Below, piece by piece: positions 793-59,332 of a stretch of 64,000 nt of DNA. The DNA comes from an uncultured Pseudomonadales bacterium (GTDB lineage Bacteria; Patescibacteriota; Microgenomatia; UBA1400; PJMF01). Position 1 is the first letter of the stretch. Every line of letters begins with the position of its first letter. The stretch is taken from NCBI GenBank assembly GCA_964457085.1, contig CAYWDM010000002.1, positions 116,037 through 180,036 of the forward strand, written 5' to 3'. Position numbers and translations under genes: made by a program. Under the pieces are notes generated by a model that had not been told where the DNA came from, ran no database searches, and saw nothing but the letters and a program-made list of their open reading frames with translations.

Positions 793-1479
793 ATGTGGGT
801 CACATCAAAACTTAAATTATCTGTAATTGTTCCAATCTTCAATGAAGAGAAAACCGTGGTAAAGGTGTTGCAAAAGCTTCTTGCTTCGACCGAAGTTTTT
901 GAAGTGGTGGTGGTTGATGATGGCTCAACAGATGGTTCACTTAAAAAGATACAACAGCTCAAACACAAAAAACTTCGAGTTTTTTCAAAAGCTAATGGTG
1001 GCAAAGGTAGTGCGGTACGGTACGGTTTAGAAAAAGTTACTGGTGACTATGTGTTAATCCAAGATTCCGATTTGGAATACGATCCTGATGATATTCCAGT
1101 GTTGGTTGAGCCAGTGAAAAAAGGTAAAGCTGAGGTTATATATGGTTCAAGATTTTTAGGTTCACACTCGAATTTGCTGTTTTGGCATCGAGTTGGAAAT
1201 AGCTTTTTAAATTTCGTGGTCAATATCATGTATGACACTACACTGTCGGACATGGAAACTTGTTACAAATTATTGCCCACAGAATTATTCCGATCACTTG
1301 ACATTAAAGCGAATAAATTTGACATGGAACCTGAGATTACCTGCAAAATGCTGCGTAAAAAAGTCAAGATTTATGAAGTGCCCATTACCTATGTAGGGAG
1401 AGACTTCACTGAAGGCAAAAAAATTACTTGGCGCGATGGATTTGGAGCGCTGTGGATGATTTTTAAACTGAGATTTTAA
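793..1479 (+). CDS. Family-2 glycosyltransferase (DPM1/GtrB-like polyprenol-phosphate sugar synthase).
   Basis: N-terminal VIVPIFNEEKTV, the DDGSTDGS (DXD-like) motif, DSDLEYDPDD and a conserved GT-A core. Confidence 0.85.
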   Translation: MWVTSKLKLSVIVPIFNEEKTVVKVLQKLLASTEVFEVVVVDDGSTDGSLKKIQQLKHKKLRVFSKANGGKGSAVRYGLEKVTGDYVLIQDSDLEYDPDDIPVLVEPVKKGKAEVIYGSRFLGSHSNLLFWHRVGNSFLNFVVNIMYDTTLSDMETCYKLLPTELFRSLDIKANKFDMEPEITCKMLRKKVKIYEVPITYVGRDFTEGKKITWRDGFGALWMIFKLRF

Positions 1480-8112: not shown

Positions 8113-9225
8113 ATGTATATGGCTGAACAAACAGAAAAACCAAAATTTGATTTAGAAAAAGCAATTGCGGAGATGTTGGCGGTCCCTGAATTTACCAAAC
8201 TTAAGCTTGATGTCTGGGCTAAAAAAATGGGAATTGAAGCTAGCTCAAGGGACTTACGAGCCAAGGTGATTGATTGGCTGGTGAATTATCCAGATCAAAA
8301 GCAAGCGGAACAATTGATGAGTAAAATTCATTTTATGGATTTTGCATTCATTTCTTCCCAAGTAATACCACGTTGGAACGAGGCAAAAAAATCTCAGCCA
8401 GAACAATCAAAGCTCACTCCCTCACAGGAAAAATTATTTAAATTAGTGGGTGCGACTGCAGCTACGGGTACCGCAATTGCTGTTTCAGAAATAGTTCGAC
8501 GACTAGACCAATTAATTAATGGTGGCGAACAAGTTTTTAGTGCTAACATCAACACGGCTGAGTTAGTCCAAGATTTAGAACAGAAACTGGATGGCAAAAA
8601 AATCACTATCCAACAGTCACTAGGTGGAAGAACTGGAGCTGGTGATACGCTAACTCTTATTGATGGACAAGACAAAGTGCTGTTGACCATAACGATCAAG
8701 AACTCAGCAGAAAATGCTCCATTAAACAAAACTTTATTTAGTGATGAAGAGCCTCGAAAAATGCCTAAAGTTGAGGTAATGGTCAGCAAATCAAATGGTG
8801 GAAATTTCTTTGAAAAAGGCGTTGACCTCTATGGAAGTGGCAAGCGGGCAATTCAGCAACTGCAAACTGGAGGTAGCGGAGTTGTTAATAGTATTCTGAA
8901 TGCAGCTGACGATGTGGGTGAAATGATTGGGTTAGTTGATTTGCCCAATCAAGTTTCTAATGTGATTGAAAAATTAGCAGAGCGAGAAGAACAGGAGTTT
9001 GATCGTGAGTCAGATGAGATTGCTACTCTTAATAATAATCAACTCGAGTTAGTACTTTCTGCTTTATTGTGTACAAGTTGTGGCGTGCCTCGACCTAAAG
9101 AAGCAAGTGCATTATGCGCACAATGTGGTGCTGCACTGGCAAATCGAGTAGAGGCCGATGTTGGTAAATACGGACAACAATTGGTTAAATTTAAGCAAAT
9201 GGGAATGGTTGACTCAGATAAATGA
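8113..9225 (+). CDS. Hypothetical protein with a C-terminal CxxC...CxxC zinc ribbon.
   Basis: 370 aa with CTSCGVPRPKEASALCAQCG at the C-terminus. No other recognisable motif. Confidence 0.5.
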   Translation: MYMAEQTEKPKFDLEKAIAEMLAVPEFTKLKLDVWAKKMGIEASSRDLRAKVIDWLVNYPDQKQAEQLMSKIHFMDFAFISSQVIPRWNEAKKSQPEQSKLTPSQEKLFKLVGATAATGTAIAVSEIVRRLDQLINGGEQVFSANINTAELVQDLEQKLDGKKITIQQSLGGRTGAGDTLTLIDGQDKVLLTITIKNSAENAPLNKTLFSDEEPRKMPKVEVMVSKSNGGNFFEKGVDLYGSGKRAIQQLQTGGSGVVNSILNAADDVGEMIGLVDLPNQVSNVIEKLAEREEQEFDRESDEIATLNNNQLELVLSALLCTSCGVPRPKEASALCAQCGAALANRVEADVGKYGQQLVKFKQMGMVDSDK

Positions 9226-10139: not shown

Positions 10140-13100
10140 ATGCCAAATGAAAACATCCCCTTCCTAAAGGAAATCCAAAAAGGCTATTTGCCAAATGCAA
10201 AAAATGCAGAATCTGCAAATGCAGTTTTTGACTTAGTGGCAGATGAGGCTAAATCTGTAATGGAAATGGGTGAGCAGGCAGAGGTAGTTTCGAGTGCTGC
10301 ACGTCAAGCGATTAATGAAGTCTTAAAAGGAGAACAAGTCTGGACGACCGTTTTGGAATCGGTTCAAAAAAAGTTGATGGATGGCGTTGGCAATATGGAT
10401 TCCCTTCGTGAGCTCCGAGCTTTGCAGGTGTTTGTCAAAGAAAATTTACCGATACTTTCTCAGGGTAGATTAGAGAAAAGTGGTACTGGTGAGGGTGCAA
10501 GGCGAGAACGTGCTGAGATAGTGTTAGAAGTGCAAAACATGGTGGTGAGCTCTGTTGCGGAAAAATTGGCAGACACCAAACATTTACCGCCCAGAATTAC
10601 ATTTGTACAATCTTGGCAAACTGCGATTCCTGATTTAAAGCGGAGGCTAGGAGTTGCTGGCAAAACTGAACTCTCCAAGGAGATTGACAACTTATTGGAT
10701 GCAAGTACACCATCAGGCAATGACGCACTACTTCAAGTAAATAGGATGTTTTCGGAAGCGAAAATTACTGAATTTGTAGCTCGTTATGAGGTGAAATCAG
10801 AAGCTGATTCAGAATCTGCCACCACCATGTCTCCACAGGGCGAAGTGTATGCAGCATTTCTGCAACAACAGCTGGAATCTTTTGATGCCGGGCAGCATCA
10901 AATAATCAACACTCAAGTTACTCAATTAGAAGAACAATTTTTGAATGACATATTTGCTGGGATCTGGCAGAGAAATGGTAAACTTTCGAAAACGCTAGAT
11001 GAATTACCTGATGATCGTAGAGGTAACAGAGCTATCTCCGAGATAGTCAAGATGAGTGTGGAAGGTGGTAATCTGGGTGATTATTTATTAGCTTTGGGGC
11101 AGTTAAGTAATGAACAGCGAAGAATTGCTTTCCAAAACTCATATGATGCTTGGAATAAAGTTCCTAGAACCGCAGAGGAAAAGTCAGAAGCAGCAAAGAT
11201 ACTATTGGTGGCCTTTGATAGGGAGACAGACGGTGAAACCAATTACGCAGTTGAACAGCTGCAAAAGAGTGCTGGAAATCCTGATGTAGTGCAACTTCGG
11301 GCCGAGTCAAAAGCAGAACTGACGAAGGAAGCCATGGGTGAGCTTACATCCGATTTATTCACTATTGATCTGACAAATCCAAGTTACAGACTCTATGTGC
11401 CTGAGTTAGTCAGTAAGCTGATCGATAAGGGTGTAGATACTCGGAGGTTAGCCGCGGCTCAACTAGCGAAACAAGAAATATTCCAAACTACAATTACTGA
11501 TATTCTAGAAAAACACATGCCAAAAGATGTCACACAGGCACAACAGTTTATCGATGAGTCTAGATTTGCTTTAAAAAATGCACAGAAATTGGAATATTAT
11601 CGACAAGGAAAAGATGGCTTTGTGATTCGGAAGGACTTGGGTGAGCGTGACAATCAAGTGCTGGAGCGTCGTAAGCAACAAATGTTTTTAGTAGGCTTCG
11701 TACGCCATTTGTTAAATCAACCTCAACATGCACCAGAAGCAGTGACTGACATGCGGCAGTATTTTGCAGATGCCGAGAAGTTTGGAGTTACCGCCAAAAT
11801 CTTGATCGATATTCATAACTCTGTCTCTACCGCGATTGTGGCATTTAATAAGAAAATCGAGGCTACAAGTGTGGGAGCTTATCACAGAGAAAGTGCTGCA
11901 ATTGACTTTACCGACCACATGACACGGGTTATGAAAATCCCACCTCCACTTGGTGTTCATATGCTCACCATGACTGAAGCAAAAGGTCTAGAGAATTATG
12001 GCTGGGGCGGTGAGGATCGCCCAAGCACTGGTAATGTCGGAATATATACTGACAATGCTGAGGATTCGAGAGATCAGGTTATAGCTGGGTATGCAGTGAA
12101 AGATGTTCTAAAAAGAGCTCAGATGAAGGTTGATAAATCAGGGATTGTCCCGTTATTAAATACCGGAGCTGAGCTAGATTCTTTTGAGTCTAGACTGGCC
12201 AGACATGAGTCATTGCTCAAGCCAGGGTTTGGAGGAATGTATGAGGGCCAGCAATGGCACAATGTTGATAGATTTGACAATCTAATCAAAAATGATCCAT
12301 ATGTCGATCTACAAACAAAAGCAGCGGAGTCTTTAGTTGAGCCTGATGAGCAGGCATTAAAAGCAGCCATGGAGAAGTTGGCACTGACAGGTAAAAAAGG
12401 AGATGAGCTATCATCAGCCGTAGATTCTTGGGGATATCATTGTGAAAATGATTACTCAAGACTTGGTTTTGCAGAGAAAGGCCTAATTAGGTTGGGAGGT
12501 GGTAGTAGCACACTTGCGAGTGAGAAGCACAGGTATGAGCAAAGCGCCGAACAGTTAACTGGCGAGAAATTCAATTTACTTGAGAGTGCAGATCGGTTGC
12601 GTTTGAGAAATACTCTTGAAGCTAGGAAGAAAGCAGCGCAAAAGAAATTGGCTACAGAGATTGCTACGAAGATCAAGGGAATTAGTGCAAAAGTAGTTTC
12701 TGGTGAAAGCATGGCTGCTGAGTATGTAAAAATGATGCTTAAAGATCCAGAGATGCCTTCACTGGAGGTCGTTGATTACAGCCAAAATTATCGTACATTA
12801 AAGGTGATTGCAGCTGATGACATTAATACGGTGCAGACTGATCCTCGCCTTGAAGTTATATATCGTACTTTCCAGAAAGCGAGAGAGGCTTATGGGAAAA
12901 GAGTGTATTCAAAGGTGAATAACTTAGTGGCAAATCGTGCCTATGGTACAGAGACTCAAGCGATAGAGGATGCAGTTGGAGAGTTGAGATTAAAATTAGG
13001 ATATACGGAAGCTAGAGAATCTATGGGGTACAGTAGAGAGCCTTCGCCACCAAAAGTTGATTTAACTCCGATCAGTCGAGCTATCGAACCTGTTCTCAAA

Positions 13101-13283
13101 AAAGGCTATGCACTCAACACTCAAGCAATCAATTTGAATTCAATAAAATCAGAGCCATTCAAGCAAATGCCAGGTGGTTCAGAAGATTCTGAACAGGTAG
13201 TGCTCAAAAAGAAACAAGAGCTTGAACAGAGACAGCAGAAACTAGTGATGGCAGCAACGCCTTCACCTCAGCAGTCATCGTAA
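10140..13283 (+). CDS. Large hypothetical protein (1047 aa), helical and charged, no recognisable catalytic motif.
   Basis: Uninterrupted 3.1-kb ORF with consistent composition and no signal peptide. Confidence 0.6.
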   Translation: MPNENIPFLKEIQKGYLPNAKNAESANAVFDLVADEAKSVMEMGEQAEVVSSAARQAINEVLKGEQVWTTVLESVQKKLMDGVGNMDSLRELRALQVFVKENLPILSQGRLEKSGTGEGARRERAEIVLEVQNMVVSSVAEKLADTKHLPPRITFVQSWQTAIPDLKRRLGVAGKTELSKEIDNLLDASTPSGNDALLQVNRMFSEAKITEFVARYEVKSEADSESATTMSPQGEVYAAFLQQQLESFDAGQHQIINTQVTQLEEQFLNDIFAGIWQRNGKLSKTLDELPDDRRGNRAISEIVKMSVEGGNLGDYLLALGQLSNEQRRIAFQNSYDAWNKVPRTAEEKSEAAKILLVAFDRETDGETNYAVEQLQKSAGNPDVVQLRAESKAELTKEAMGELTSDLFTIDLTNPSYRLYVPELVSKLIDKGVDTRRLAAAQLAKQEIFQTTITDILEKHMPKDVTQAQQFIDESRFALKNAQKLEYYRQGKDGFVIRKDLGERDNQVLERRKQQMFLVGFVRHLLNQPQHAPEAVTDMRQYFADAEKFGVTAKILIDIHNSVSTAIVAFNKKIEATSVGAYHRESAAIDFTDHMTRVMKIPPPLGVHMLTMTEAKGLENYGWGGEDRPSTGNVGIYTDNAEDSRDQVIAGYAVKDVLKRAQMKVDKSGIVPLLNTGAELDSFESRLARHESLLKPGFGGMYEGQQWHNVDRFDNLIKNDPYVDLQTKAAESLVEPDEQALKAAMEKLALTGKKGDELSSAVDSWGYHCENDYSRLGFAEKGLIRLGGGSSTLASEKHRYEQSAEQLTGEKFNLLESADRLRLRNTLEARKKAAQKKLATEIATKIKGISAKVVSGESMAAEYVKMMLKDPEMPSLEVVDYSQNYRTLKVIAADDINTVQTDPRLEVIYRTFQKAREAYGKRVYSKVNNLVANRAYGTETQAIEDAVGELRLKLGYTEARESMGYSREPSPPKVDLTPISRAIEPVLKKGYALNTQAINLNSIKSEPFKQMPGGSEDSEQVVLKKKQELEQRQQKLVMAATPSPQQSS

Positions 13284-13348
13284 ATTGCTGATTTAGTTTT
13301 GCCGATTGCTGACATGTTAATTTCAGAAATGAAGAAGTGGTGACTTCA

Positions 13349-14092
13349 TTAACTATTTGGCTTGAAGTCTTTTGGAAAAGGATGAGCTGAGGGGTAGTTT
13401 TGTGTCCAACCACCACCATATTTTTTGTTGGCCAAGAGTATAGCTCGCTCTCCGGGATCAATCACGATTAGCTTGCCATCAGCAGTGCGTAGTAGCCCTT
13501 TAGCTACCAAACCCTGAAGGATTGAGTCAAAAATTTCTTCTGGTTTATTATTTACCTCGTTGGTGATTTTGTTGGTGTCTTTTTTAGAGATCACTACTGC
13601 TGCCCATAATCGTTGATATGGCCCATCAGTATCATCTTCGCTTTTGCCAAGAAATGAAAAGGCAAACACAAAATCTCCATGTTCCCAGCCACCTTTTTTT
13701 GAATCACAGGGAATTAGATCAAAGGCTGGTTTTCCCAGTAACCCATCTATTACAGTTTGACCGCGACTGTGTGATTGCTTGTCAAAACAGGTTTCATCAA
13801 ATTTGCGAACAGGTACAAAGATACCTATTGTTTTCATGCCACTCTCCACTGCTTGTTTAAATGACTGATCTGCAGTGATTGCAGCTTTTATCTTGCCAAG
13901 AATTTCAGTGAGACCAGGGCTCATTTCTTGAAGCGGTTTGATTTTGTCTCCGTGTAGAGTTTCGCCAGTTCTGCCAAGAAAAAGTGGTGGTGTTTCCTGT
14001 TCCTCAACGCCGAAAAAACCTTCTTTTCCTGGTCCATTTTTGCCAATTCCTGCTTTTCCAATTCCTGCTTTGCCTGCAAGTGCCTGTGCCAT
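13349..14092 (-). CDS. Module protein A1 (247 aa), paralogous to the 19230..19985 protein and divergently transcribed from giant gene B1.
   Basis: The C-terminal half aligns with A2 (WEHGDFVFAF...SKKDTNK... versus EHGWALFVMSGKDTNK...). N-terminal GKAGIGKAGIGK micro-repeat. Confidence 0.6.
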   Translation of the reverse strand: MAQALAGKAGIGKAGIGKNGPGKEGFFGVEEQETPPLFLGRTGETLHGDKIKPLQEMSPGLTEILGKIKAAITADQSFKQAVESGMKTIGIFVPVRKFDETCFDKQSHSRGQTVIDGLLGKPAFDLIPCDSKKGGWEHGDFVFAFSFLGKSEDDTDGPYQRLWAAVVISKKDTNKITNEVNNKPEEIFDSILQGLVAKGLLRTADGKLIVIDPGERAILLANKKYGGGWTQNYPSAHPFPKDFKPNS

Positions 14093-14154
14093 AGTTCTGT
14101 CTCCCAGATCATATTAGCACTAAAAGCCTATGTTTTGCATCATAAAAATCAGCT

Positions 14155-17100
14155 ATGATTATTTTGGAAATGATATTGGAAGCGACAACAGTGACCGGAG
14201 CTAGGCAACATGGATTTGACGATCTTGTTGTGGCTCCTGAGGATCCCGTATCAGTACTCAGAGATTTGAATTGTGGTGAGGTGAGAACAAAAGATACCTC
14301 ATACCTAAAAAGCCAAAATGAAGTTTCGGATATGGTTAAGGCCACAAAAGAACTAAAGTGGCCAGGTTTTTGGTACGAATTACTGCAGGGAGCTTGGGAT
14401 TATAACGACTGGAGTAAAGGTAGTCCTCAAATTACCATTACTTTTGCTGGTGGTGAATCAATTTCACTGGCTCAGTTTGTCAGTGAGTGTGCTGCAGCTG
14501 GTGGTTTAAAAAAACTCAAACGTGGTCGAATTCAAGAAGTGAGTGTCAGCAATAACATTCGCGGAGATACTGGACTGCGACCTGTAAATGTGGTGTTGAC
14601 TGATCACGATGAAAAGGACGGTAAAAAACCACTGGGAACACATGGGCGAGGACTAAAAATTGCCAGTACTTGTGTTTTTGCTGGCGAATTGGCTAAAGCG
14701 ATTTCATATGAGTCATGGGTGCCAGAAATGGGTATGTGGTACGGTGAGGCCGGCATGCATCGGGATGAAGATGACCCAAAAGCTCCAGAAAATTTTCAAA
14801 TTAAATACAAACGAAATAAGGAATTGCAGACAGATAGAACTGTAATTAGAGTAACAGAGCCTGCAGAGGATTTGGTAGAAGCACTAATTTCATTTCAAGA
14901 TTGGTTTTTACCAGTCAATGGCAACTACCGTTTCCAAAGGATGGAGGCACAATCTGCAGATATGGTGCCTAATCGAGCTACGATTTTTGCCAACAAAAAA
15001 CACGCTCAAGAACCCCACGATGCTGCGGTTACTCCTTCAGAGCTGAGGTGGACGTATGGGCAAAATAAACTGGATGAGGCCGATGGTGTGGAACCACCTA
15101 GAGTCGAGATTCTATCGCGGGAATTATTGCCAACTGCACCAAATCCTATTAATTTTGTGTTTATTGATGGTTTGAGGGTGGGAGTGCCGGGAGCTACATT
15201 TTGTCAAATCTATGCTTTTTGGGGCTGGGGCAAAGGGACTAGTCATGGATACAATCCTGGTCGATCAAATGACTCGCTTAAAATGACCGGTGATATTGAC
15301 GATTTGTTGGCAAAAACATTAACGCTTAACACTAATGCAGCAGTTTTTTTGGAAATCATGGTTGCGAATTTAAATGGCCACAAAACGTATGAGGGTACAG
15401 AAGTGTCATATCTAGATGCTCTCGCTGGAAATGCAGCATCAAAGTCAGCACTGACACATGCATGGGAAGAATTAAGGATGGCAACTAATTCACCTGCAGA
15501 TGTTTTGATTACAGACTCTAAAGACGATTATGATCGGGCAAAGCGTGAGCAAAAAGTCGCTTTATTTTTGCCAAAACGATGGACAGCAATTTTGTGTGAG
15601 ATTATTCCAGGTTTGACTACTGCAGGCACGGTTTTTTCTCAAGAATTTGAAGAGGTTCAAGCGAAAGAGAGAGCCACTAGGCAGGCTATGGAACTGCAAC
15701 AGCGTGAAATGGAGGCTCGGGTTGTGAGAGAGAAGGAAGAGGCAATTGAACAATATAGAAAGAGCCGAGGTATTGTTAAGGAGGCATCAAATACTGGTGA
15801 AGTCATTAAAATGGCAAGACCAGAAAACAAACAAATAACGTTGCAACTGGCTTTATTGCATCTGGTGCATGCGTTGGCTATGGATGGTGGCAGAGTTGTA
15901 TCAGGCGATCCAAAGAAATTAATTCTCGAGATGCGAGCTGGTGGTTTTGATCAGTTGCCCAATAATACCAATTCGCTTGATGTACTTGGTGAATTTCTCA
16001 AATTGTACCTGGTGGTGTTTGGTAGTGACGCAATCGCAGAGTTAAAAATCGTGAGACAAGAAAAGGGAGTGTATTTCAATTTTGCCAGAAGTAAAAAAGC
16101 TGATTCTTTTGGCAACTACACCATTGAGGTACAGCAGGGTGAACTGGAACTACCACATGACAGTTGGGTGCAGTTAGAGTTGTCATTACCAGACACAACT
16201 GATGATAACGCATCCACTGGCGAAGCACGCCAACCACTAACTAGTGTTGATGGAGAAGATCTAGATTGTGCTGGATACCATGATGTGCTGACTCAGGCGA
16301 TTCGCGCCATCAGTAATTTGGATGGAACAGTTGATAGAAATGTCTATATGGCGAGTGAATATTTTGCACTGTATCCAGCAGCTGAAGCCAGAATGCGACT
16401 CCGCATGGAGATCGAAAAAACACAGCTTGAAATGAAGCTGTTATTCGATGAACAAAATAAATTGCGAGTGAGGTCTGGACTCAAGCCGTTGCCATATCCA
16501 GATGAATTAAAAACAACACGACCTCGGAAGGTGGGGCTTGGTGCTGGTATGGGACTACCGCCTGCGGAAGCCGACCTAACTCCAGCAGAAGAAGAGGAAA
16601 AGACTAAACAAAATCGTGAACATTCTGCAGCTCGAAAGTTACGTCAAAAAATGTCCAACATCTTGACGGGCAATGAAATTTTAGATGATGTTCCAGTCGA
16701 CTCTGAGATTATTAGTATGATTCACCCAGATAGCGTTCCGGGATTGAGTGAAAAAGGCGATGTGGAACGTATGCAGATGGTGCTGGCTGAATTACCCATT
16801 GGTGAGCGGATGAGAGCAACATTGGCTGAAAAGATGCGTGAGATTCTCAATCGTGTGGCAGTGCCAGACTTCTCACTCAGTTCAGGAGAATGGTTGCATC
16901 TGCGCGGATATTTAATTGATCACATTAATCCCGCTCATTCAATCACAACTACAGATAATTATGATGCTCTACCAGCCCTACCATTCACTGAGATGCAGGC
17001 AAATCCCTGTCTCAGATTTAATAAGAAAATTATTGCAGGACTATATTCAATTCCATGCCCACCTGGATTTCATCCGGTGGCAGTCAGTCATCCTGGCGGT

Positions 17101-18747
17101 CCAAATATTGGTTTACATTTCTCTGGCAATTTAGAGAAAAATGTTTTTGCAATGAATCTTGAAAAAGACGTGCCTCCGGGACTGAGTTTTTATTTTGAGC
17201 CGACCAAAACAGTTGATCGTTCATTACCCGATCAGCGTGAATGTGAAGTCACAGCTGATGAATCTAGTTTGGCAGAGCACTGGTTTAATTTGATTACCTC
17301 AATTCGTGAGTCATCACTAACTGATAAGCAAAAAGTTGATGTCATTATTCGTGCTTGGGTCAAGGCTTTTAACTACAGCAAAGAACAAAAAGCATTTGAC
17401 GAATATACAGATAGTCGAGGAATTAAAAAGAAATTTACTACAGATATCATTAACAAATCGATTGGCAACTGTGGGTATGCAACCCAAGGTATTTTAGGGT
17501 TACTTACTTTAATTGGGATTCCGACCAGAGATGTGGCGGCATTTCTGCATGATGGCGGTGGCAATTTTTCGCGTCAAGGAAATTATCACGGTATGGTGCA
17601 AGTCTATATTGATAACCGTTGGGTGTTGATCGAACCGCAAAGCGGATATGTTCAGGAAGGGTATGAAACTGAAGAACTACCCACAACTGTTCGTACTGAA
17701 TTTGAAAATTTACTCGGTGAGATTCCCAGAAGGTACTTAGAGTCAGCTCGAACTGTTGCGGCACTGCCTGATGTAGTTGGAGAAGATGAGAACGAAATAC
17801 CAACCATGGCTACTGGGCTTCGTGAGAGCTTGCGGGCTTTACTGCCATTTAGCTTACCAACATTTTCAAATCCATTTGCACTACTTCGTGACCGATGGAC
17901 TGAATTCATGCAGCGACGTCGAGAATCAAGCGGACGTAATCAGCACGAGGCAACAGTAATAAATCCCGCTGAGTTGCTCCGCGACTTAGCACAGGCAACA
18001 AATGCACTACAGCTAACTGAAGGAAAATTACCAGAGGGAATAACTCAATCTGAACCATTTACTGGTGCAGATATGGGACAGCAATTTTTGATTGAGCTGA
18101 GCACACAAATTACAGAGATGATGGCTGATTCCCCAACAACCATTCTTAATCCAGATGCTCCAATTGCCGAAAGATTAGAAGTAATGGAAGAGCAGTTATT
18201 GCATTACACTCGTTTGTTGCAAACTGTGCGAACAGCACAAATGTATGAGATGGTAACCGATGATCAAGTTGAGGCGATAAAGAATACTGTTGATAGACTG
18301 GGTCAGTTTGTGGTGCAGCTGCGAAATGAACAATCTGAGTTTGAGGATGCACAGCTACGAAAAGAATTATTCAGGGCAAATTTGAAAAAATCATTATTGC
18401 GGCTGAGTGCAGTTACAGCCGGAGCAACCATTGGAGCATTGTTGGCTCCACATATGAATGAGATCTTGTCACTGGGAGCTACTCAATTAGCTGCAACCAA
18501 ACAGCTGGTGGAATCACTGGCATCATCAGGACCAAATCTTCCCTCACCATCTGAAATTGCAACCAGTACCCAAGATTTTGCTCAAGAACAACTCCGAAAA
18601 ATCGAGTCCGTACCACAAAAACCAATTACTGAAACAATGCGACAGTATTGGCTGCTCGCATTAGTGGCAACAATACTAGCTGGCACACATACAGGAGCAT
18701 ATATGTTGGGTAAGACGAAAGAATCACCCGCAGAAATAGAGGATTAA
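14155..18747 (+). CDS. Giant protein B1 (1530 aa) with a transglutaminase-like (papain-fold) Cys/His core near the C-terminus and C-terminal hydrophobic segments.
   Basis: Conserved with B2 over the N-terminus (KDTSYLKSQNEV...WPGFWYELLQGAWDYNDW; IRGDTGLRP; GTHGRGLKIAS; YAFWGWGKG...NPGRSNDSLK). Cys motif IGNCGYATQG, then YHGMVQVYIDNRWVLIEPQ, and a Glu/Lys/Arg coiled central region. Confidence 0.7.
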   Translation: MIILEMILEATTVTGARQHGFDDLVVAPEDPVSVLRDLNCGEVRTKDTSYLKSQNEVSDMVKATKELKWPGFWYELLQGAWDYNDWSKGSPQITITFAGGESISLAQFVSECAAAGGLKKLKRGRIQEVSVSNNIRGDTGLRPVNVVLTDHDEKDGKKPLGTHGRGLKIASTCVFAGELAKAISYESWVPEMGMWYGEAGMHRDEDDPKAPENFQIKYKRNKELQTDRTVIRVTEPAEDLVEALISFQDWFLPVNGNYRFQRMEAQSADMVPNRATIFANKKHAQEPHDAAVTPSELRWTYGQNKLDEADGVEPPRVEILSRELLPTAPNPINFVFIDGLRVGVPGATFCQIYAFWGWGKGTSHGYNPGRSNDSLKMTGDIDDLLAKTLTLNTNAAVFLEIMVANLNGHKTYEGTEVSYLDALAGNAASKSALTHAWEELRMATNSPADVLITDSKDDYDRAKREQKVALFLPKRWTAILCEIIPGLTTAGTVFSQEFEEVQAKERATRQAMELQQREMEARVVREKEEAIEQYRKSRGIVKEASNTGEVIKMARPENKQITLQLALLHLVHALAMDGGRVVSGDPKKLILEMRAGGFDQLPNNTNSLDVLGEFLKLYLVVFGSDAIAELKIVRQEKGVYFNFARSKKADSFGNYTIEVQQGELELPHDSWVQLELSLPDTTDDNASTGEARQPLTSVDGEDLDCAGYHDVLTQAIRAISNLDGTVDRNVYMASEYFALYPAAEARMRLRMEIEKTQLEMKLLFDEQNKLRVRSGLKPLPYPDELKTTRPRKVGLGAGMGLPPAEADLTPAEEEEKTKQNREHSAARKLRQKMSNILTGNEILDDVPVDSEIISMIHPDSVPGLSEKGDVERMQMVLAELPIGERMRATLAEKMREILNRVAVPDFSLSSGEWLHLRGYLIDHINPAHSITTTDNYDALPALPFTEMQANPCLRFNKKIIAGLYSIPCPPGFHPVAVSHPGGPNIGLHFSGNLEKNVFAMNLEKDVPPGLSFYFEPTKTVDRSLPDQRECEVTADESSLAEHWFNLITSIRESSLTDKQKVDVIIRAWVKAFNYSKEQKAFDEYTDSRGIKKKFTTDIINKSIGNCGYATQGILGLLTLIGIPTRDVAAFLHDGGGNFSRQGNYHGMVQVYIDNRWVLIEPQSGYVQEGYETEELPTTVRTEFENLLGEIPRRYLESARTVAALPDVVGEDENEIPTMATGLRESLRALLPFSLPTFSNPFALLRDRWTEFMQRRRESSGRNQHEATVINPAELLRDLAQATNALQLTEGKLPEGITQSEPFTGADMGQQFLIELSTQITEMMADSPTTILNPDAPIAERLEVMEEQLLHYTRLLQTVRTAQMYEMVTDDQVEAIKNTVDRLGQFVVQLRNEQSEFEDAQLRKELFRANLKKSLLRLSAVTAGATIGALLAPHMNEILSLGATQLAATKQLVESLASSGPNLPSPSEIATSTQDFAQEQLRKIESVPQKPITETMRQYWLLALVATILAGTHTGAYMLGKTKESPAEIED

Positions 18748-18748
18748 T

Positions 18749-19237
18749 ATGATTAAACCACCCCAAATTGCAGTGACTTCATCGATCGGTGAGTATGATT
18801 TGTTTGAGTTGATGAATCTCAGCAAAATGCCACAGTCTCAAAAAGATACTTATTTATTGGATGCTAATGCCCTGATTTGGCAGGGTTTTTTGATGGAAAA
18901 ATTACCACATTTATTAACTCAACAACAGTATCAACAACTGCAGCAACAACTAAATGATGGCAAAACTCTCGAGGAAATTTTAGCTTGGTTATTGGAGCTG
19001 GTGCCGAATTTTACATATTTGCTGGCAGAATTCACTCGTGATGCAAAAGCAACATTGGTTGAAAAACAGTTTCAGAGTGAGATCTTGAGCTTGGAAAAAA
19101 TGCTCTCAACAGAATTAACAGAACAAAATTACCAGAAGATAAAAATCAGTCTTTCAAATTACAAGACTGCACTGCGACTTGCAGTACAACAAGAATGGCG
19201 TCAGATTATTGAGTTATGGCAGGCGTCAATTATTTAA
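18749..19237 (+). CDS. Module protein C1 (162 aa), small acidic helical protein paralogous to C2.
   Basis: Its start overlaps the B1 stop (TAATATGA) and a GAGGA RBS is present. EYDLFELM...ILAWLLELVPN...AEFTRDAK aligns with C2. Confidence 0.6.
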   Translation: MIKPPQIAVTSSIGEYDLFELMNLSKMPQSQKDTYLLDANALIWQGFLMEKLPHLLTQQQYQQLQQQLNDGKTLEEILAWLLELVPNFTYLLAEFTRDAKATLVEKQFQSEILSLEKMLSTELTEQNYQKIKISLSNYKTALRLAVQQEWRQIIELWQASII

Positions 19238-19985
19238 CGGTTGTTGTTGAGGCATAATTTTTTGGATATCTGCCTTTAACATGGGTATTGGAAAGAATAA
19301 TCACATGCTCGCCCATATCAACTTCAGCTTGCTCACCAGTACTCAGTTGTAATGGTTCATCTTCTGAAAGCATTCCAAGATCAACTAAATGCTCAAATAC
19401 TGCGGATGGATCCTTCAGACAATCAGCGGCAAATTTATTAGTGTCTTTACCAGACATCACAAATAATGCCCAGCCATGTTCTTGTTTTGGTTGAGAGCTA
19501 TCTTCAGTATCATTTGTAGCGGCGATTGCAAAATGAATCACTACTGCGTGGTCTTTTGATCCCCAGTTACCTAGTTTAGATTTGATTGGCTCTTCGACTG
19601 GCTCTTCGACTGGTCTTGAAAACAATTTTTTTACAAAACTAAGTCTAGTTTTTTGACTGGTCTTCGTTGTTCGTGTTGAGCTGTCTAAAAACTGAATAGG
19701 AACCACCTGTAGCCAAGTTGTGTCGCCAGGTTTCATTTGTGACTCTGGAATGGGGTCACCTGCCAAAACGGCTTGAATGTCTTTTCTTTTGAGTACATTT
19801 TCAATTACAGGATCAAGAATTAGTTTCTCAATTTGAGAAGGTTCAAGACCTCTATCACTATGTTCTGGTTGTGGCAGTTTAATAAACTTAAATTTAAATT
19901 TTATTTGACCGTCATCGACTTCTTGTAAATCGGGTTTGCCATCAAGATTTGGTTTTGAGGGAGTAGATTCTGAGATTTGAGTCAT
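19230..19985 (-). CDS. Module protein A2 (251 aa), paralog of A1, divergent from B2.
   Basis: Alignable with A1 over the C-terminal 120 aa. Contains a PVEEPVEEP micro-repeat. The 3' end overlaps C1 convergently by 8 bp. Confidence 0.6.
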   Translation of the reverse strand: MTQISESTPSKPNLDGKPDLQEVDDGQIKFKFKFIKLPQPEHSDRGLEPSQIEKLILDPVIENVLKRKDIQAVLAGDPIPESQMKPGDTTWLQVVPIQFLDSSTRTTKTSQKTRLSFVKKLFSRPVEEPVEEPIKSKLGNWGSKDHAVVIHFAIAATNDTEDSSQPKQEHGWALFVMSGKDTNKFAADCLKDPSAVFEHLVDLGMLSEDEPLQLSTGEQAEVDMGEHVIILSNTHVKGRYPKNYASTTTVK

Positions 19986-20065
19986 GCTAATTCCTTTTTT
20001 ACTCTACTTCAGAATACCACGGAGTACTTGATCTGGACAGTAACTATCAGCTATTCTGGAGAAGT

Positions 20066-23000
20066 ATGACATTAATGGATGTCCTTGGTTTTGGTGGCGT
20101 CATGTTTCGTGGCTCAAAGAAGTCAGGTGTGGATGGTGTGCCCCCCATGATTCCAGTTGAGATGGGTGACCCGCAGGCAGAGCTACGCAATCTCGGCCCA
20201 GAATCAAAGGTTAAGGGTACTTCATATAACGATCAGCAGAACGAAGTACGAGAGATGATTGATGCTACCAAAGAAAAGCGTTGGCCAGGTTTTTGGTATG
20301 AATTACTGCAGGGTGCATATGAGTACAACGATTGGAATCGGGGATTACCACGGATTTTAGTATATTATGCCGGAGTGGCTGAACCAGTGAGCTTGACTCG
20401 GTTTGTCTCTGATCGTGGTCGATTTTTCCATCGCAAAGTTGAAAGAGTTGAAATCAAAAACTATATTCGAGGCGATACTGGACTACGACCGCATAATGTC
20501 GCCGCAACTCTTCATGAAGAAAAAGATAATCAAGTTGGTTTGAGTGCTCATGGACGTGGGATGAAAATTTCATCCACTGCAGCCGCAGGTCATTTGGCGA
20601 AAGGCATCACTTTTGAGTCATGCGTACCTGGTATTGGTGCTTGGTTTGGTCGTGGTGAGATTGCACGGGATGAGGAGGATCCACGACCTTCAGATACATT
20701 CCAACTGCGGTATAACAATAATCCTGCATTGAGAGCAAAAGAGACCATTTTTACCGTACTTGAACCAAATAGTGCTGCTTTGAAAGCCTTGTCTGATTTA
20801 CCCAAATGGTTTTTACCCACGAATCCCGCATATCCAAGCTATCGTCTTGATGCAGAGCCAACCGCAACACGACCCAATAAAACTACTATATATGCTAACC
20901 AAAAGTTTGTGGGAGCTGAGAATAGTCTCGCTTTCTCTGAAAGAGAATTAAATTTATTTGGAAATAGTGGATTAAAATCTGAAGCTAATGCAGTTGAACC
21001 TGCTCGGGTTGAAATATTACCGGATAACTTGACTGGAAAGCGACGGGGCAAAATCGACTACGTATATGTTGATGGATTGCGAGTGGCAGTTGAGGGTGCC
21101 CAGTTTGCTAATGTGTATGCCTTTTGGGGGTGGGGCAATGGTGATCATGGTTTTAATCCGCGTCGTTCCAATGATTCCTTGAAGTTGGCAAATGCAATGA
21201 ATTTTTTACTAGGTGCCACGTTGTGTCGTTGTCCAAATCCTGAGGTATTTTTATCCATTCTACGTTCAAATTTGAATGATAAGGCCACCTTTGAAGGGGG
21301 TACCGGCATTTTTGAAAGACATTGGTACGACCTTTCAAAAAGTATGACTGGTGAAGCAAAAGCTGCCATGAGTGCTGCTTGGGGTCAGTTGACTACCGAA
21401 ATTGGTGTCAAAGGCAGAGTGTATGTCACATCTGAAAAAGAATCAAAGCAACGAGCCAAGCGAGAGAAAAAACCAACCATTTTGATGCAGCAGAACTGTT
21501 TAGCAATGTTGATGGTATCGAGATCTGATCTAAGGACTGTTGAGTCGGTGTTTGAAGATGAGGCCAAGGATGCAGAGGCACGTGAGGCTCAATTGAAATG
21601 GGAGAAAGATAAATTAATTCGTGAAAAAGAAGAACTGAAAAAAGAGGCTAAAAATAGAGACGAATATCTAAAGTTAGAGGCGGCAAAGGAAGCCGAGGCT
21701 AACGCCAAAAAGCGAACTGGTATTAAAGAGTATGCCGAAAGTACTGGAGAATTTCTCCGAGTGGCAGCACCCGATGATCCATCAATTGCAGTTGAGATGG
21801 CAAAAATAAATTTAATTAATTTATTTATGCTCAACCAAGGCTCTTTTAAACTAGAAAAAATTGGCCTTTTTGCTAAAACCGGGAAATTGGTAATTGATTT
21901 GCAGATGCCTGAGCTGGTGACGCTGCCGAGAAATGTTAAAGACATGGGACCGGTTGGTGATTTTGTGTTAAATTTTTTAGCCGCTGGTTCCACGACTGCT
22001 ACAGCCGAGGTGAGGTATGTGCGCAATTCAGAGGGGGTCTATTTTCATTTAGGTCGGTCGATGATTGACGAAAGGATTGATAAGTTTGGTAACTTCAGGA
22101 TTTTTGTGAATCAGGGTTCACTAGACATGACCGACAAACATCTAGTGAGAATCACACTCGATTTAGGAGAAAATGATGAGACAAGATTTAACGGTGAAGT
22201 GGCAAAGATATTTGAGTCATTGCAAAAGGCTGATGGCACTCCTGATGTAGATCGGTATCTGGAAAGTCAGTATTACCATGATTTTCCACCAGGTGAAGAT
22301 AGGCTTAAAGAAAAACGCAAAATGGAAGCGGAGCTACAGCAATACGAAAAGCACTTAGCTGAAGAGAATAGACGTCGACGTCGTGTTGGCCTGCCGCCAT
22401 TACCGAGCAAATACAATGCCAAATCAAGATTTGGTGGGCATGACGAGTTTGAAGATGAACCTGCATCTGGAGGAAGAGCCAAACTCCCCGCACAACGTGA
22501 TCGCAAAACCTTAGATCGTATTAGACGTTCTGAAGAACGAGCGATCGGTGATTCTGGTATCGATATCCAAGATGCGATCTTATCGCTGATGCACCCAGAT
22601 GCCAGGCCAGGAATTACTACGCATGGCACTGAGAAGCGACGGCGCATGGTACAAGAATCACTGTCTGGAAACGAGCGGCTTAGAAATGAAGCTGCAGCTC
22701 GGGCTAGGGAGATTTTTAAGCGACAATTGATCCCAGATTGTTCGATGTCGTCTAGTGAGTTTAGTCGGGTGAGACCATACCTTATTGACCATATCGACGA
22801 TGAAAACTTTGGCACTGACGATTACGACATCTTGAGTGGTTTTGAGTTTGGCCAGTTGAGTAATTTGCCCAAATTGAGGTTCAATAAACCAATTGGTTCC
22901 GGACTAGGCTCACTCCCTTGCCCTCCTGGGTACAGGCCAGTTGGGTATTATCACCCAGAGGGCGAGATTAAAGGACTGCATTTTTCAGGAAATTTTGAAC

Positions 23001-24136
23001 GCAATGTTTTTGCCATCTCATTACCTCGTGGTATTGATAAAGGCCTAACGGTCTACTATCGAAAGTTGAAATCATTTGCTGATACCACAGAGCCGACGGA
23101 AGAAAATCGTCGTTGCAGAGTGAAGGTGGAAACATTAAATGGTCCATGGTCTGAGCTGTTGATTGCATTACGCGATAGTCCTTTAAATGAAAAACAAAAA
23201 GCCGACATTATCATTCGAGCTTGGTCTCAGCGGGGCTTTATCTATGATAAGTCAGAGGCAGGACATCGTAAGTACGACCCGTATGGCTCGATTGATAGCC
23301 CTGAGTTTATGAGTGCTATTCTTAATTTTGGAAATGGTACTTGTGGGCATGCGGAAAAAGGTTGGCAGGGTGCGGGGACTGCTTGTAACTTGGCGGTTCG
23401 AAAAGTTACCAGTTATCTTGCTGGTGCTAATGGCGGTTTCTCGATGCGTGAAAATTTACATGGCTTGATACAGGTCTACATTAAAGATAGGTGGGTATTG
23501 GTAGAGCCACAAGTCGGATATATAGATCCTGGATATGAGTTAGAAGAAATACCAGCTCCATATCGTGAGAAATTTACTCGTTTGATTGAGGCGATACCTA
23601 ACGCAAAAGTTACTTCCCCAGAGCGTTTATCAGCGTTGCCAGATGTGCTTTCTGAAAACACAGAAAATTACACCAGCATGATGGAAGAATTAAGAATGAA
23701 ATATGATGAATATTTTGGTGATGGAGAACAGCTCACGCTCAGTGACTTGATGGTAGCTGTGCGTTCCGGTTTTGTCCAATTTGACAAACGCAAACTAGCA
23801 CTCTCACTTGCTAAATATTCAGCTCTAACCTTAGCTGGGGCATTTGCAGTACATGAAATTACACCAATGATTCCGAAGTTAGCTGAAATGACATTACAGC
23901 TTTTGGACTCAATTCCTCCAGAAAAATTAAGAAATATAGCAATTGGAACCATAGTGTCCATAGTCGCAATATCATATTTAGGTACCGGGAAGATTGGATT
24001 TGAGATCGGAAAATATATTGAAAGTCGTCGGTTAAGTTTAGCTTTTGCTTCCGATGAAACAGCAGCACTTCCAGATAGTTCAAGTGATGGTGGTGAAGAG
24101 AGCCCTTTGCCTGCGATACTACCAGTAGTAGACTAG
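20066..24136 (+). CDS. Giant protein B2 (1356 aa), paralog of B1 with a transglutaminase-like Cys/His core and C-terminal transmembrane-like helices.
   Basis: Shares the motifs WPGFWYELLQGAYEYNDW, IRGDTGLRPHNV, SAHGRGMKISS, YAFWGWGNGDHGFNPRRSNDSLK, GNGTCGHAEKGW and LHGLIQVYIKDRWVLVEPQ with B1. Confidence 0.7.
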   Translation: MTLMDVLGFGGVMFRGSKKSGVDGVPPMIPVEMGDPQAELRNLGPESKVKGTSYNDQQNEVREMIDATKEKRWPGFWYELLQGAYEYNDWNRGLPRILVYYAGVAEPVSLTRFVSDRGRFFHRKVERVEIKNYIRGDTGLRPHNVAATLHEEKDNQVGLSAHGRGMKISSTAAAGHLAKGITFESCVPGIGAWFGRGEIARDEEDPRPSDTFQLRYNNNPALRAKETIFTVLEPNSAALKALSDLPKWFLPTNPAYPSYRLDAEPTATRPNKTTIYANQKFVGAENSLAFSERELNLFGNSGLKSEANAVEPARVEILPDNLTGKRRGKIDYVYVDGLRVAVEGAQFANVYAFWGWGNGDHGFNPRRSNDSLKLANAMNFLLGATLCRCPNPEVFLSILRSNLNDKATFEGGTGIFERHWYDLSKSMTGEAKAAMSAAWGQLTTEIGVKGRVYVTSEKESKQRAKREKKPTILMQQNCLAMLMVSRSDLRTVESVFEDEAKDAEAREAQLKWEKDKLIREKEELKKEAKNRDEYLKLEAAKEAEANAKKRTGIKEYAESTGEFLRVAAPDDPSIAVEMAKINLINLFMLNQGSFKLEKIGLFAKTGKLVIDLQMPELVTLPRNVKDMGPVGDFVLNFLAAGSTTATAEVRYVRNSEGVYFHLGRSMIDERIDKFGNFRIFVNQGSLDMTDKHLVRITLDLGENDETRFNGEVAKIFESLQKADGTPDVDRYLESQYYHDFPPGEDRLKEKRKMEAELQQYEKHLAEENRRRRRVGLPPLPSKYNAKSRFGGHDEFEDEPASGGRAKLPAQRDRKTLDRIRRSEERAIGDSGIDIQDAILSLMHPDARPGITTHGTEKRRRMVQESLSGNERLRNEAAARAREIFKRQLIPDCSMSSSEFSRVRPYLIDHIDDENFGTDDYDILSGFEFGQLSNLPKLRFNKPIGSGLGSLPCPPGYRPVGYYHPEGEIKGLHFSGNFERNVFAISLPRGIDKGLTVYYRKLKSFADTTEPTEENRRCRVKVETLNGPWSELLIALRDSPLNEKQKADIIIRAWSQRGFIYDKSEAGHRKYDPYGSIDSPEFMSAILNFGNGTCGHAEKGWQGAGTACNLAVRKVTSYLAGANGGFSMRENLHGLIQVYIKDRWVLVEPQVGYIDPGYELEEIPAPYREKFTRLIEAIPNAKVTSPERLSALPDVLSENTENYTSMMEELRMKYDEYFGDGEQLTLSDLMVAVRSGFVQFDKRKLALSLAKYSALTLAGAFAVHEITPMIPKLAEMTLQLLDSIPPEKLRNIAIGTIVSIVAISYLGTGKIGFEIGKYIESRRLSLAFASDETAALPDSSSDGGEESPLPAILPVVD

Positions 24137-24160
24137 ATATAAATAAATATACATAAACCT

Positions 24161-24709
24161 ATGGTTACTGAGATGGCTCCAACAAAATCAATAGACGATT
24201 ACTCAGTTTTTGATTTGATTGGTGTTGAGTTAACACCAGAAGAACAAGAAAGCTATATCTTGGAATTAAATGATGAGGTATGGACTCGGTTTATCGAACA
24301 ACGGTTACCGTTTTTATTGACCGAAACTCAGTTGGATGAGCTGCGTGACCAACTTACTGAGACAATTCCATTTGATCAGATATTAACATGGCTGCAGCAG
24401 CTAGCTCCAAACACTCCAGAATTAGTTGCAGAATATACCCGTGATGTTAAAACTGAAGCCATTGAGAAGAGTTTGCTCGCACAATTGGCTCAGTGTGAAA
24501 AAATTCTAGCTAATGAAATTTCTGAAGAACATCGACTGCAACAACAAGAGCGACATGAACGGCTGCAGGCTGCTATTGGCTACGCACAACAGCAACTGTG
24601 GGATGATGTCGATCGTGTCCTCAACAGCTCAGAACCATTTGTGATAGGTAGTGAGGGATATGCAATTAATAAAATCGATTCAGTTGAAGTAGATGAGGAA
24701 TCAAAATAA
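24161..24709 (+). CDS. Module protein C2 (182 aa), paralog of C1.
   Basis: DYSVFDLIGV...ILTWLQQLAPNTPELVAEYTRDVK aligns with C1; same position relative to B2. Confidence 0.6.
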   Translation: MVTEMAPTKSIDDYSVFDLIGVELTPEEQESYILELNDEVWTRFIEQRLPFLLTETQLDELRDQLTETIPFDQILTWLQQLAPNTPELVAEYTRDVKTEAIEKSLLAQLAQCEKILANEISEEHRLQQQERHERLQAAIGYAQQQLWDDVDRVLNSSEPFVIGSEGYAINKIDSVEVDEESK

Positions 24710-58076: not shown

Positions 58077-58084
58077 TTTAAATG

Positions 58085-59255: not shown

Positions 59256-59332
59256 TGGTGGACAATACAGGACTCGAACCTGTGACCTCACGAATGTGAA
59301 TCGTGCGCTCTAACCAGCTGAGCTAATTGTCC
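59256..59332 (-). tRNA. tRNA-Val (anticodon CAC), CCA encoded.
   Basis: Manual fold: acceptor GGACAAU/AUUGUCC, D-arm GCUC-AGCUGGUUA-GAGC, anticodon stem CACGA/UCGUG with loop UUCACAU, T-arm ACAGG-UUCGAGU-CCUGU. Confidence 0.85.

Follow-up and report, generated by a model that had tools for sequence, protein, structure and literature searches.

A predicted, highly divergent GHL-type module at the N terminus of two paralogous giant proteins from an uncultured bacterium

Two genes in a 64,000-nt stretch of DNA from an uncultured bacterium (the window) encode giant proteins, B1 and B2, and the locus raises the question of what their conserved N-terminal region is. An earlier note had drawn attention to motifs shared by the two proteins, had suggested a ligand-binding or enzymatic domain with no obvious family, and had placed the end of the conserved region at position 15300. 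Coordinates given here are those of the window, on the forward strand unless the reverse strand is named. B1 (14155..18747; 1530 aa) was defined by its open reading frame, its translation, and its paralogy to B2 (20066..24136; 1356 aa), which was defined by its open reading frame and by BLASTP against B1 and has the same architecture. The order in B1 is a GHKL-like module, a central region, a transglutaminase-like domain, and C-terminal hydrophobic helices. BLASTP aligned the two proteins with 36% identity over 1251 columns (E = 0.0); their first 480 aa are 43% identical. All of the quoted motifs were found in both proteins where they had been placed. In B1 these are TSY (residues 48-50), QNEV (54-57), WPGFWYELLQGAWDYNDW (69-86), IRGDTGLRP (135-143), GTHGRGLKIAS (161-171), PRVEIL (315-320), YAFWGWG (353-359), and NPGRSNDSLK (367-376); the B2 equivalents lie at nt 20219-21184. 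The conserved region does not end at 15300 but extends to about residue 480 (nt 15594), and the B2 N-terminal module covers 20066-21520.

Neither Pfam nor NCBIfam gave a significant GHKL match for B1, B2, other family members, or family consensus sequences. The Pfam models HATPase_c, HATPase_c_3, HSP90, and DNA_mis_repair stayed below their gathering thresholds on B1, B2, and the family consensus, and HATPase_c matched only 1 of 34 members (E = 0.041). Searches of PDB sequences with phmmer and hmmsearch returned nothing above noise (the matches were NKG2-D and a protein related to thioredoxin reductase), and the central region (residues 481-1049) and C-terminal region of B1 had no matches there. 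The statement that the region has no obvious family thus holds for sequence searches (Pfam, NCBIfam, PADLOC, and PDB) but not for the fold, for which the superfamily is clear.

Homologs of the N-terminal module amounted to 58 representatives, 34 of them with E < 1e-30, and the conservation that the earlier note had read as a sign of function extends to all of these. A profile search of MAG contigs with a six-sequence alignment led to two MAG loci. The family is rare and is known solely from uncultivated bacteria. From the 34-sequence alignment, AlphaFold2 gave a model with a pLDDT of 90.3 and a pTM of 0.88; from B1 and B2 alone the pLDDT was 34 and the model was unusable. The pLDDT exceeded 90 at 379 of 480 residues, and the low complexity or disorder that the earlier note had set against its own reading was not seen. 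The predicted structure has the Bergerat alpha/beta-sandwich fold of the GHKL superfamily, and two independent structure-comparison programs returned GHKL proteins exclusively. One of these was Foldseek, a check that had been proposed for the region, which matched Hsp90 (E = 2.4e-5), TRAP1, and Topo VI-B. Because this is a nucleotide-binding fold, it supports the idea of a ligand-binding or enzymatic domain. Given the model, residues ~30-480 of B1 and B2 very probably belong to the GHKL superfamily, as a far-diverged module of the GHL type. The superfamily is known; this branch of it is new and unannotated.

Conservation was counted in 50 family members, whose overall identity is only 23 to 30%. 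In B1 numbering, Y74, E75, Q78, G166, T229, P236, R370, and S374 are invariant in all 50, and E75, Q78, G164, G166, T229, and R370, invariant or nearly so, are among the best-conserved positions of the 480-aa module. The invariant residues sit on four GHKL motifs, in the right order and on the right secondary-structure elements. Profile alignments with hhalign had E-values of 0.05 to 0.24; against an Hsp90 profile made of three sequences, the N-box, G2 box, and motif IV aligned co-linearly and weakly (E = 0.049).

The Bergerat-fold nucleotide-binding domain covers B1 residues ~44-255 (14284..14919), including an N-terminal strand and helix (the strap, which holds TSY and QNEV). The N-box (motif I), assigned from hhalign and conservation, reads YELLQGAWD, with E75, G79, and D82 (14374..14400; B2, 20297-20323), and hhalign aligned it with MutL E29-LVEN33-SLD36 and HtpG ELISNASD. 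E75, presumed to be the catalytic base, is present in 50/50 members and D82 in 44/50. Position 79, that of the Mg-binding Asn, is Gly in 26/50 (including B1 and B2) and Asn in 24/50, with no other residue, and the switch between the two has occurred independently at least three times. Motif III, the G2 box or ATP lid, is G161-T-H163-G164-R-G166-LKIAS (14635..14667; B2, 20543-20575) and runs into helix 166-176. The GxxGxG pattern is present (G166 in 50/50, G164 in 49/50, G161 in 47/50, and H163 in 45/50); hhalign paired it with Hsp90 IGQFGVG, and it resembles GyrB GGLHGVG (113-119). Motif IV, RTVIRVTEP (14836..14862), lies on strand 228-234 and carries the invariant T229 and P236; hhalign paired T229 with the motif-IV Thr of Hsp90 (compare GyrB GT165MV). 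The earlier note had not mentioned the N-box pattern YE..Q(N/G)..D, T229 of motif IV, or the Gly in place of Asn at the Mg site of both paralogs.

Motif II is the exception. A canonical G1 box (DxGxG) with its adenine-contacting Asp, as in GyrB VSVQD73DGRGIP, was not found in this module. The corresponding region of B1, VSVSNNIRGDTGLRP (14539..14583), has N133 at the end of model strand 126-135, followed, after an insertion of 3 to 4 residues, by G140-L-x-P143. The residue at the strand end is Asn in 46/50 and Asp in 1/50. By its position in the model, N133 appears to occupy the site of the adenine-binding Asp, in a stretch where the profile alignment is unreliable.

The model, the two-domain alignments, and conservation delimit a second alpha/beta domain (B1 256-381; 14920..15297) that contains PRVEIL, YAFWGWG, and the R370-S-x-D-S374 loop. 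Two-domain GHL structures aligned with 219 to 262 residues of the model, and isolated ATPase domains with 143 to 152, some 90 to 110 fewer. The second domain is transducer-like in the model, and its identity as a true S5-like transducer is putative. Of the two motifs from which the earlier note had suggested a ligand-binding or enzymatic domain, G.HGRG is the glycine-rich ATP-lid box, whereas WGWG is in the transducer-like domain, outside the binding pocket. The WGWG tetrad is limited to the B1/B2 clade; only F355 and G357 are kept there across the family. A helical subdomain (B1 382-480; 15298..15594; pLDDT ~90-97), aligned across the family, finishes the module.

The C-terminal part of B1 holds a transglutaminase-like (papain-fold) domain with C1106, H1145, and E1160 (17302..17640), which matched Pfam Transglut_core (PF01841) with E = 2.6e-8 and 34.5 bits against a cutoff of 23. 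B2, with C1093, H1132, and E1147 (23336-23512), scored 18 bits, under the Pfam cutoff. The triad motif, GNCG...H...W..IEPQ, is kept in at least 35 family members, including B2, and its acidic residue is the Glu within W..[IV]EPQ. A hydropathy scan found a pair of hydrophobic helices near the B1 C terminus (residues 1413-1431 and 1500-1518; 18391..18708) and the same pattern in B2 (23795-23983) and in the family members P0002, P0012, and P0017; most members combine a Cys-His-Glu transglutaminase-like domain with such C-terminal helices. In B1 the helices are presumed, from hydropathy, to be a membrane anchor. The scan found no N-terminal hydrophobic segment that might be a signal peptide; with none, and with the hydrophobic helices at the extreme C terminus, a secreted effector is disfavored.

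Directly 3' of B1 is a gene for an all-helical protein of 162 aa (18749..19237) that is 32% identical to the product of its homolog downstream of B2 (24161..24709; 182 aa). Homologs of this partner, of about 160 aa, follow family members in loci L002, L006, L008, L012, L013, and L014, and the gene is present at 8/8 main-clade loci.

Taken as a whole, and with the fold included, the explanation that we think is probably correct is a membrane-tethered, nucleotide-gated GHL clamp that controls a cysteine enzyme. Its central step, regulation of the transglutaminase-like domain by the clamp, is more tentative, and the case for it falls a little short of even. By analogy with gyrase B, MutL, Hsp90, and MORC, nucleotide would bind in a pocket lined by E75, the lid box, and T229. 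The lid would then close, and two N-terminal modules would dimerize through the strap. The sensor of the gamma-phosphate would be a basic residue in the second domain, with R370, the invariant Arg of the RSNDS loop, as the most likely candidate; one study of Hsp90 describes a middle-domain Arg that touches the gamma-phosphate (PMC12280139). The resulting conformational switch would gate or position the C-terminal cysteine peptidase/transglutaminase domain at the cytoplasmic face of the membrane, where the small helical protein would probably be the enzyme's target or work alongside it. Because B1 and B2 have Asn at the site of the adenine-binding Asp and Gly in place of the Mg-ligand Asn, slow or no hydrolysis, i.e., a binding-driven switch, is expected of them. 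A preference for a nucleotide other than ATP is possible. A more speculative version, which we consider doubtful, is an undescribed membrane-tethered machine of small-genome uncultivated bacteria, in which a GHKL clamp with both of its canonical nucleotide contacts exchanged would respond to a ligand other than Mg-ATP, or to ATP bound without hydrolysis, and would switch a cytoplasmic transglutaminase-like protein-modifying enzyme that has a dedicated 160-aa partner. If this were true, a GHKL module working together with a papain-fold enzyme would be without described precedent.

The same substitutions can be read differently. The module may be a pseudo-ATPase that keeps the GHKL fold, binds no nucleotide, and serves as a rigid dimerization or scaffold domain presenting the transglutaminase-like domain at the membrane. 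N133 at the place of the adenine Asp in 46/50 members and G79 in 26/50 fit this reading, as does the failure of sequence models of active GHKL families to match, and yeast Hsp90 with the equivalent D79N change at the adenine-binding Asp neither binds nor hydrolyzes ATP (PMC2132952). However, drift would be expected in a pocket that had lost its function, whereas E75, Q78, G164, G166, T229, and R370 have stayed invariant or nearly so at such low overall identity. The restriction of position 79 to Asn or Gly, with repeated switches between them, speaks for continued selection on the pocket. We therefore consider a pseudo-ATPase unlikely.

A kinase-type GHKL protein (as in histidine kinases, PDK/BCK, or the anti-sigma factor SpoIIAB), which would phosphorylate a protein such as the small downstream partner instead of working as a clamp ATPase, is a good deal less probable. 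It is very improbable that structure prediction has misled the fold call and that the module is an unrelated ligand-binding domain or has a novel fold: sequence-only methods, hhalign included, gave no significant GHKL match, but high model confidence depended on real homologs, both structure-comparison programs found GHKL proteins and nothing else, and the positions without variation map, in order and in matching secondary structure, to all four motifs.

The nucleotide-gated clamp that we favor can be compared with known systems. The GHL clamp ATPases (GyrB/ParE/Topo II, MutL/MLH, Hsp90/HtpG/TRAP1/GRP94, and Topo VI-B) have in common with the B1/B2 family the N-box Glu, the Gly-rich lid box (G-L-H-G-V-G in GyrB, G-x-H-G-x-G here), and the motif-IV Thr; Hsp90 likewise has an N-terminal strand and helix ahead of the N-box helix. 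Sequence identity to these proteins is only 7 to 13%, with no Pfam or NCBIfam match, and the lid is shorter in B1 (28 residues from N133 to G161, versus 41 in GyrB and 35 in MutL). The GHL C termini (DNA gate, endonuclease, or chaperone) are absent from the family, which instead has the transglutaminase-like domain and the membrane anchor. GHL ATPases have the adenine-binding Asp and the Mg-binding Asn, whereas this family has Asn and, in half of its members, Gly. In textbook mutants, it is these two residues that are changed to inactivate GHKL ATPases. The natural change of Asp to Asn and the recurrent change of Asn to Gly, with the rest of the pocket invariant, are thus a natural experiment on the need for them.

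The MORC, paraMORC, SMCHD1, and sacsin modules (HATPase_c_3 type) are a second comparison. Family members with Asn at position 79 read YELxQNAxDYN at the N-box, close to ELLQNAxDA, which we take to be the signature of sacsin-type domains. The giant multidomain setting is also like that of sacsin (PMC3710099). In contrast, HATPase_c_3 and other models fail to detect the B1/B2 module, the family is outside restriction-modification or defense neighborhoods and has no PADLOC match, and its fusion partners are a transglutaminase-like domain and transmembrane helices rather than CW, coiled-coil, HEPN, or DnaJ domains. Bacterial transglutaminase-like proteins, including membrane-anchored ones, share with B1 Transglut_core, the Cys-His-Glu/Asp triad, and adjacent hydrophobic helices; none with an N-terminal GHKL module was described in the literature searched. 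The combination of a GHKL module, a transglutaminase-like domain, a membrane anchor, and a dedicated small partner was likewise not found described. With this assignment, some 480 residues that were blank in every sequence library gain a name and a testable mechanism, and the GHKL superfamily gains a deep unannotated branch.

The genes around B1 and B2 include a paralogous pair on the reverse strand. A divergent gene upstream of B1 (13349..14092; 247 aa) encodes a protein 26% identical to that of the divergent gene upstream of B2 (19230..19985; 251 aa). The 247-aa product is similar to that of 9184-9843 in L002, and L006 has a 242-aa gene at the equivalent place; the gene is missing at L008 and L013 and so belongs to the cassette of close relatives only. 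PADLOC defense models gave no matches for B1, B2, or their cassette neighbors, and the family lies among housekeeping genes (rpsO-pnp, ftsA-ftsZ, and prfA); on these grounds a defense system was rejected. One distant family member adjoins PIN/RHH and AAA_14 genes. The label of the MAG, uncultured Pseudomonadales, does not fit a PNPase with only 42% identity to the E. coli enzyme, an IF-2 of 501 aa, and RNase J. The housekeeping setting, in reduced-looking uncultivated bacteria, suggests that the family may serve a core function of its lineage and not be a mobile accessory.

B1 (1,530 amino acids [aa]; 14155..18747) and B2 (1,356 aa; 20066..24136), the two giant proteins of the window, are encoded on the same strand and are clear paralogs, with 36% identity over 1,251 BLASTP columns (E = 0.0) and 43% identity in the first 480 residues. 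The motif blocks that the earlier note had listed for the N-terminal region were all in place. In B1, whose numbering is used unless otherwise stated, they are TSY (residues 48-50), QNEV (54-57), WPGFWYELLQGAWDYNDW (69-86), IRGDTGLRP (135-143), GTHGRGLKIAS (161-171), PRVEIL (315-320), YAFWGWG (353-359), and NPGRSNDSLK (367-376). A hidden Markov model of the region, run on the window translated in all six frames, matched no copy other than these two. The conserved region is real, but it does not end at nucleotide (nt) 15300, as had been supposed; the module extends to about residue 480 (nt 15594).

A profile of the B1 and B2 N termini, searched against 1.84 billion representative proteins, found 58 proteins, 34 of them with E < 1e-30. 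Most homologs are 1,000 to 1,500 aa long and aligned to B1 at the N terminus and in the transglutaminase region. The clusters that we looked up were all singletons or pairs from metagenome-assembled genomes (MAGs) or metagenome assemblies, and the sole name among them was "transglutaminase domain-containing protein [bacterium]." The N-terminal region defines a real but rare family. The only Pfam domain type found in the two proteins was the C-terminal Transglut_core, which matched B1 residues 1050 to 1161 above the cutoff (E = 2.6e-8) and B2 more weakly (18 bits). B1 keeps the Cys-His-Glu triad (C1106, H1145, and E1160) in a motif, GNCG...H...W..IEPQ, shared by at least 35 members, among them B2. 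The first 480 residues had no matches in Pfam, NCBIfam, or PADLOC; phmmer and family-profile searches of all PDB sequences returned only noise; and the family consensus sequences had no match in Pfam, where 1 of 34 members touched HATPase_c (E = 0.041).

AlphaFold2 failed when given the two paralogs alone (pLDDT 34), whereas a 34-sequence alignment gave a confident model (pLDDT 90.3, pTM 0.88), with a pLDDT at or above 90 in 379 of the 480 residues. Structural matches of this model included the phage T6 topoisomerase II ATPase (score 11.0), MutL (10.9), SMCHD1 (10.8), MORC3 (10.7), TRAP1 (10.3), GRP94 (10.0), and Topo VI-B (9.4), followed by sacsin SR1 (6.7) and histidine kinases (5 to 7). A Foldseek search, a check proposed in the earlier note, gave the same picture (Hsp90 with E = 2.4e-5, followed by TRAP1, Topo VI-B, and MutL). 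We are therefore highly confident that the N-terminal 480 residues have a GHL-type fold. Because structures with a second (transducer) domain aligned over 219 to 262 residues and isolated ATPase domains over 143 to 152, B1 residues 256 to 381 probably form a transducer-like domain, positioned as in GHL ATPases.

The motifs were mapped onto those of GHKL proteins from the secondary structure of the model, conservation, and the Escherichia coli GyrB, MutL, and HtpG sequences, and the correspondence was co-linear. In hhalign, motif I (the N-box), Y74-E75-LLQ-G79-AW-D82, pairs with MutL E29-LVE-N33-SL-D36, the sole stretch aligned to MutL; it also aligned to HtpG ELISNASD, with HtpG QSEVKQLL opposite the QNEV..M helix that precedes the N-box. 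For motif II, at which profile alignment is unreliable, VSVSN133N...G140-L-R-P143 may correspond to GyrB VSVQD73DGRGIP, since N133 lies at the end of a strand (126-135) in the model. Motif III, G161-T-H-G164-R-G166, is the G.HGRG.K block of the earlier note and matches GyrB G114-L-H-G-V-G119 and Hsp90 GQFGVG; motif IV, R-T229-VIRVTE-P236, matches GyrB G-T165-MV. The second domain holds PRVEIL and the WGWG...RSNDSLK block. Across a 50-sequence alignment of the module, Y74, E75, Q78, G166, T229, P236, R370, and S374 were invariant and N133, P143, H151, G161, H163, G164, W195, and Y258 nearly so; the WGWG tetrad was restricted to the B1/B2 clade. R370 and S374 fall in a modeled loop between two strands of the second domain. 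The GyrB QTK loop and MutL K307 contact the gamma-phosphate of the nucleotide. Hsp90 R380 is reported to make the same contact (PMC12280139), and the R370/S374 loop could, as an unproven proposal, be the counterpart of all three.

Two pocket positions depart from the canon. Where the adenine-binding Asp would be expected, 46 of 50 members have Asn, the same change as in the engineered yeast Hsp90 mutant D79N, which abolished ATP binding and ATPase activity (PMC2132952). The position of the Mg-binding Asn is Gly in 26 members, including B1, B2, and their whole clade, and Asn in the other 24, with at least three independent N-to-G switches in a neighbor-joining tree. The main rival reading, that the module is a fully dead pseudo-ATPase, seems unlikely to us: among sequences otherwise only 23 to 30% identical, conservation is highest at the remaining residues of the pocket, and the pocket is for this reason read as functional but retuned. 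A retuned pocket might bind nucleotide without hydrolysis or with slow hydrolysis, might, speculatively, hold Mg via water or the invariant Q78, or might have an altered base preference.

Directly downstream of each giant gene is a gene for a small all-helical protein (18749-19237 after B1 and 24161-24709 after B2). These partners are 150 to 180 aa long, and the two in the window are 32% identical. Homologs follow family members at seven other loci, where identity to B1 is as low as 27%, among them L002 (13977-14438), L006 (10531-11031), L008 (9337-9825), L013 (7988-8455), and L014 (3784-4239), and a partner lay directly 3' of every main-clade member examined. The partner had no match in Pfam or PDB; one member touched DUF5663 (E = 0.018). 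Its role is probably that of a dedicated partner, substrate, or regulator.

The C termini of B1, B2, and most relatives carry a pair of moderately hydrophobic helices (1413-1431 and 1500-1518 in B1; 1244-1262 and 1288-1306 in B2), and no N-terminal hydrophobic segment was found in B1, B2, or the relatives scanned; the bulk of the protein is thus predicted to be cytoplasmic and tail anchored. We suggest that the N-terminal module would act as a nucleotide-gated dimerizing switch of the GHL type. Tentatively, and with slightly less than even confidence, we propose that this switch and the small partner control the transglutaminase-like cysteine enzyme of the C-terminal part, on the cytoplasmic side of the membrane. 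The proposed way of working is that of GyrB, MutL, Hsp90, and MORC, but the module is a member of none of these families, because their sequence models do not match it, the motif II Asp is absent, and the effector domains differ; B1 and B2 also lack the motif I Asn. The suspicion of a ligand-binding or enzymatic domain was right in essence. The module represents an atypical, unannotated, and new branch of the well-known GHKL superfamily in a new architecture. No published account of a GHKL-transglutaminase fusion turned up in full-text literature searches. The finding would gain interest if the altered pocket binds a ligand other than Mg-ATP or if coupling between the two domains is demonstrated.

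In close relatives a divergently transcribed gene of 220 to 250 aa precedes the giant gene, with start codons 62 to 80 bp apart; it is absent beside distant family members. The window has two paralogous copies (13349-14092 and 19230-19985, both minus strand), and L002 (9184-9843) and L006 (5193-5921) have one each, also on the minus strand. The whole cassette of three genes, made up of this upstream gene, the giant gene, and the small partner, is tandemly duplicated (13349-19237 and 19230-24709), and the duplication is old, as the copies are only 26 to 36% identical. Just upstream of the first cassette, a 1,047-aa protein without a family match (10140-13283) resembles, weakly but over its full length (20% identity, E = 8e-12), a 1,011-aa protein just downstream of the L006 cassette (11447-14482), and may be another lineage-specific large protein tied to the locus.

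The neighborhoods of the giant genes are housekeeping: dnaJ-nusA-infB-rpsO ... pnp flank them in the window and L006, prfA neighbors the member in L008, and ftsA-ftsZ that in L009; PIN/RHH and AAA_14 genes adjoin one distant member. The window itself is bacterial chromosome (nusA, infB, pnp, sufB/S, ftsK, ddl, RNase J, alaS, transfer-messenger RNA [tmRNA], and tRNA-Val). Four housekeeping genes (6214-7719, 26234-28813, 52338-53999, and 61360-63300) look reduced or atypical. IF-2 (501 aa, beginning at the GTPase domain) and AlaRS (646 aa) are short, RNase J is present, and PNPase (859 aa, with a low-complexity C-terminal tail of ~140 aa) shares only 42% identity with the E. coli enzyme; for these reasons we doubt the label "uncultured Pseudomonadales bacterium" carried by two related MAG contigs. 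The tmRNA (58082-58516, minus strand; Rfam, 82.5 bits) is a standard one-piece molecule, and tRNA-Val(CAC) is at 59256-59332 (minus strand). Sizeable open reading frames without a Pfam match lie at 1479-3839 (786 aa), 8113-9225 (370 aa), and 42673-44499 (608 aa); the 370-aa frame follows infB, a position held in L006 by a 352-aa gene, also without a Pfam match. With GC skew above zero in every 2-kb bin from 1 to 64000 and nearly all genes on the plus strand, the whole window appears to belong to a single leading-strand replichore.
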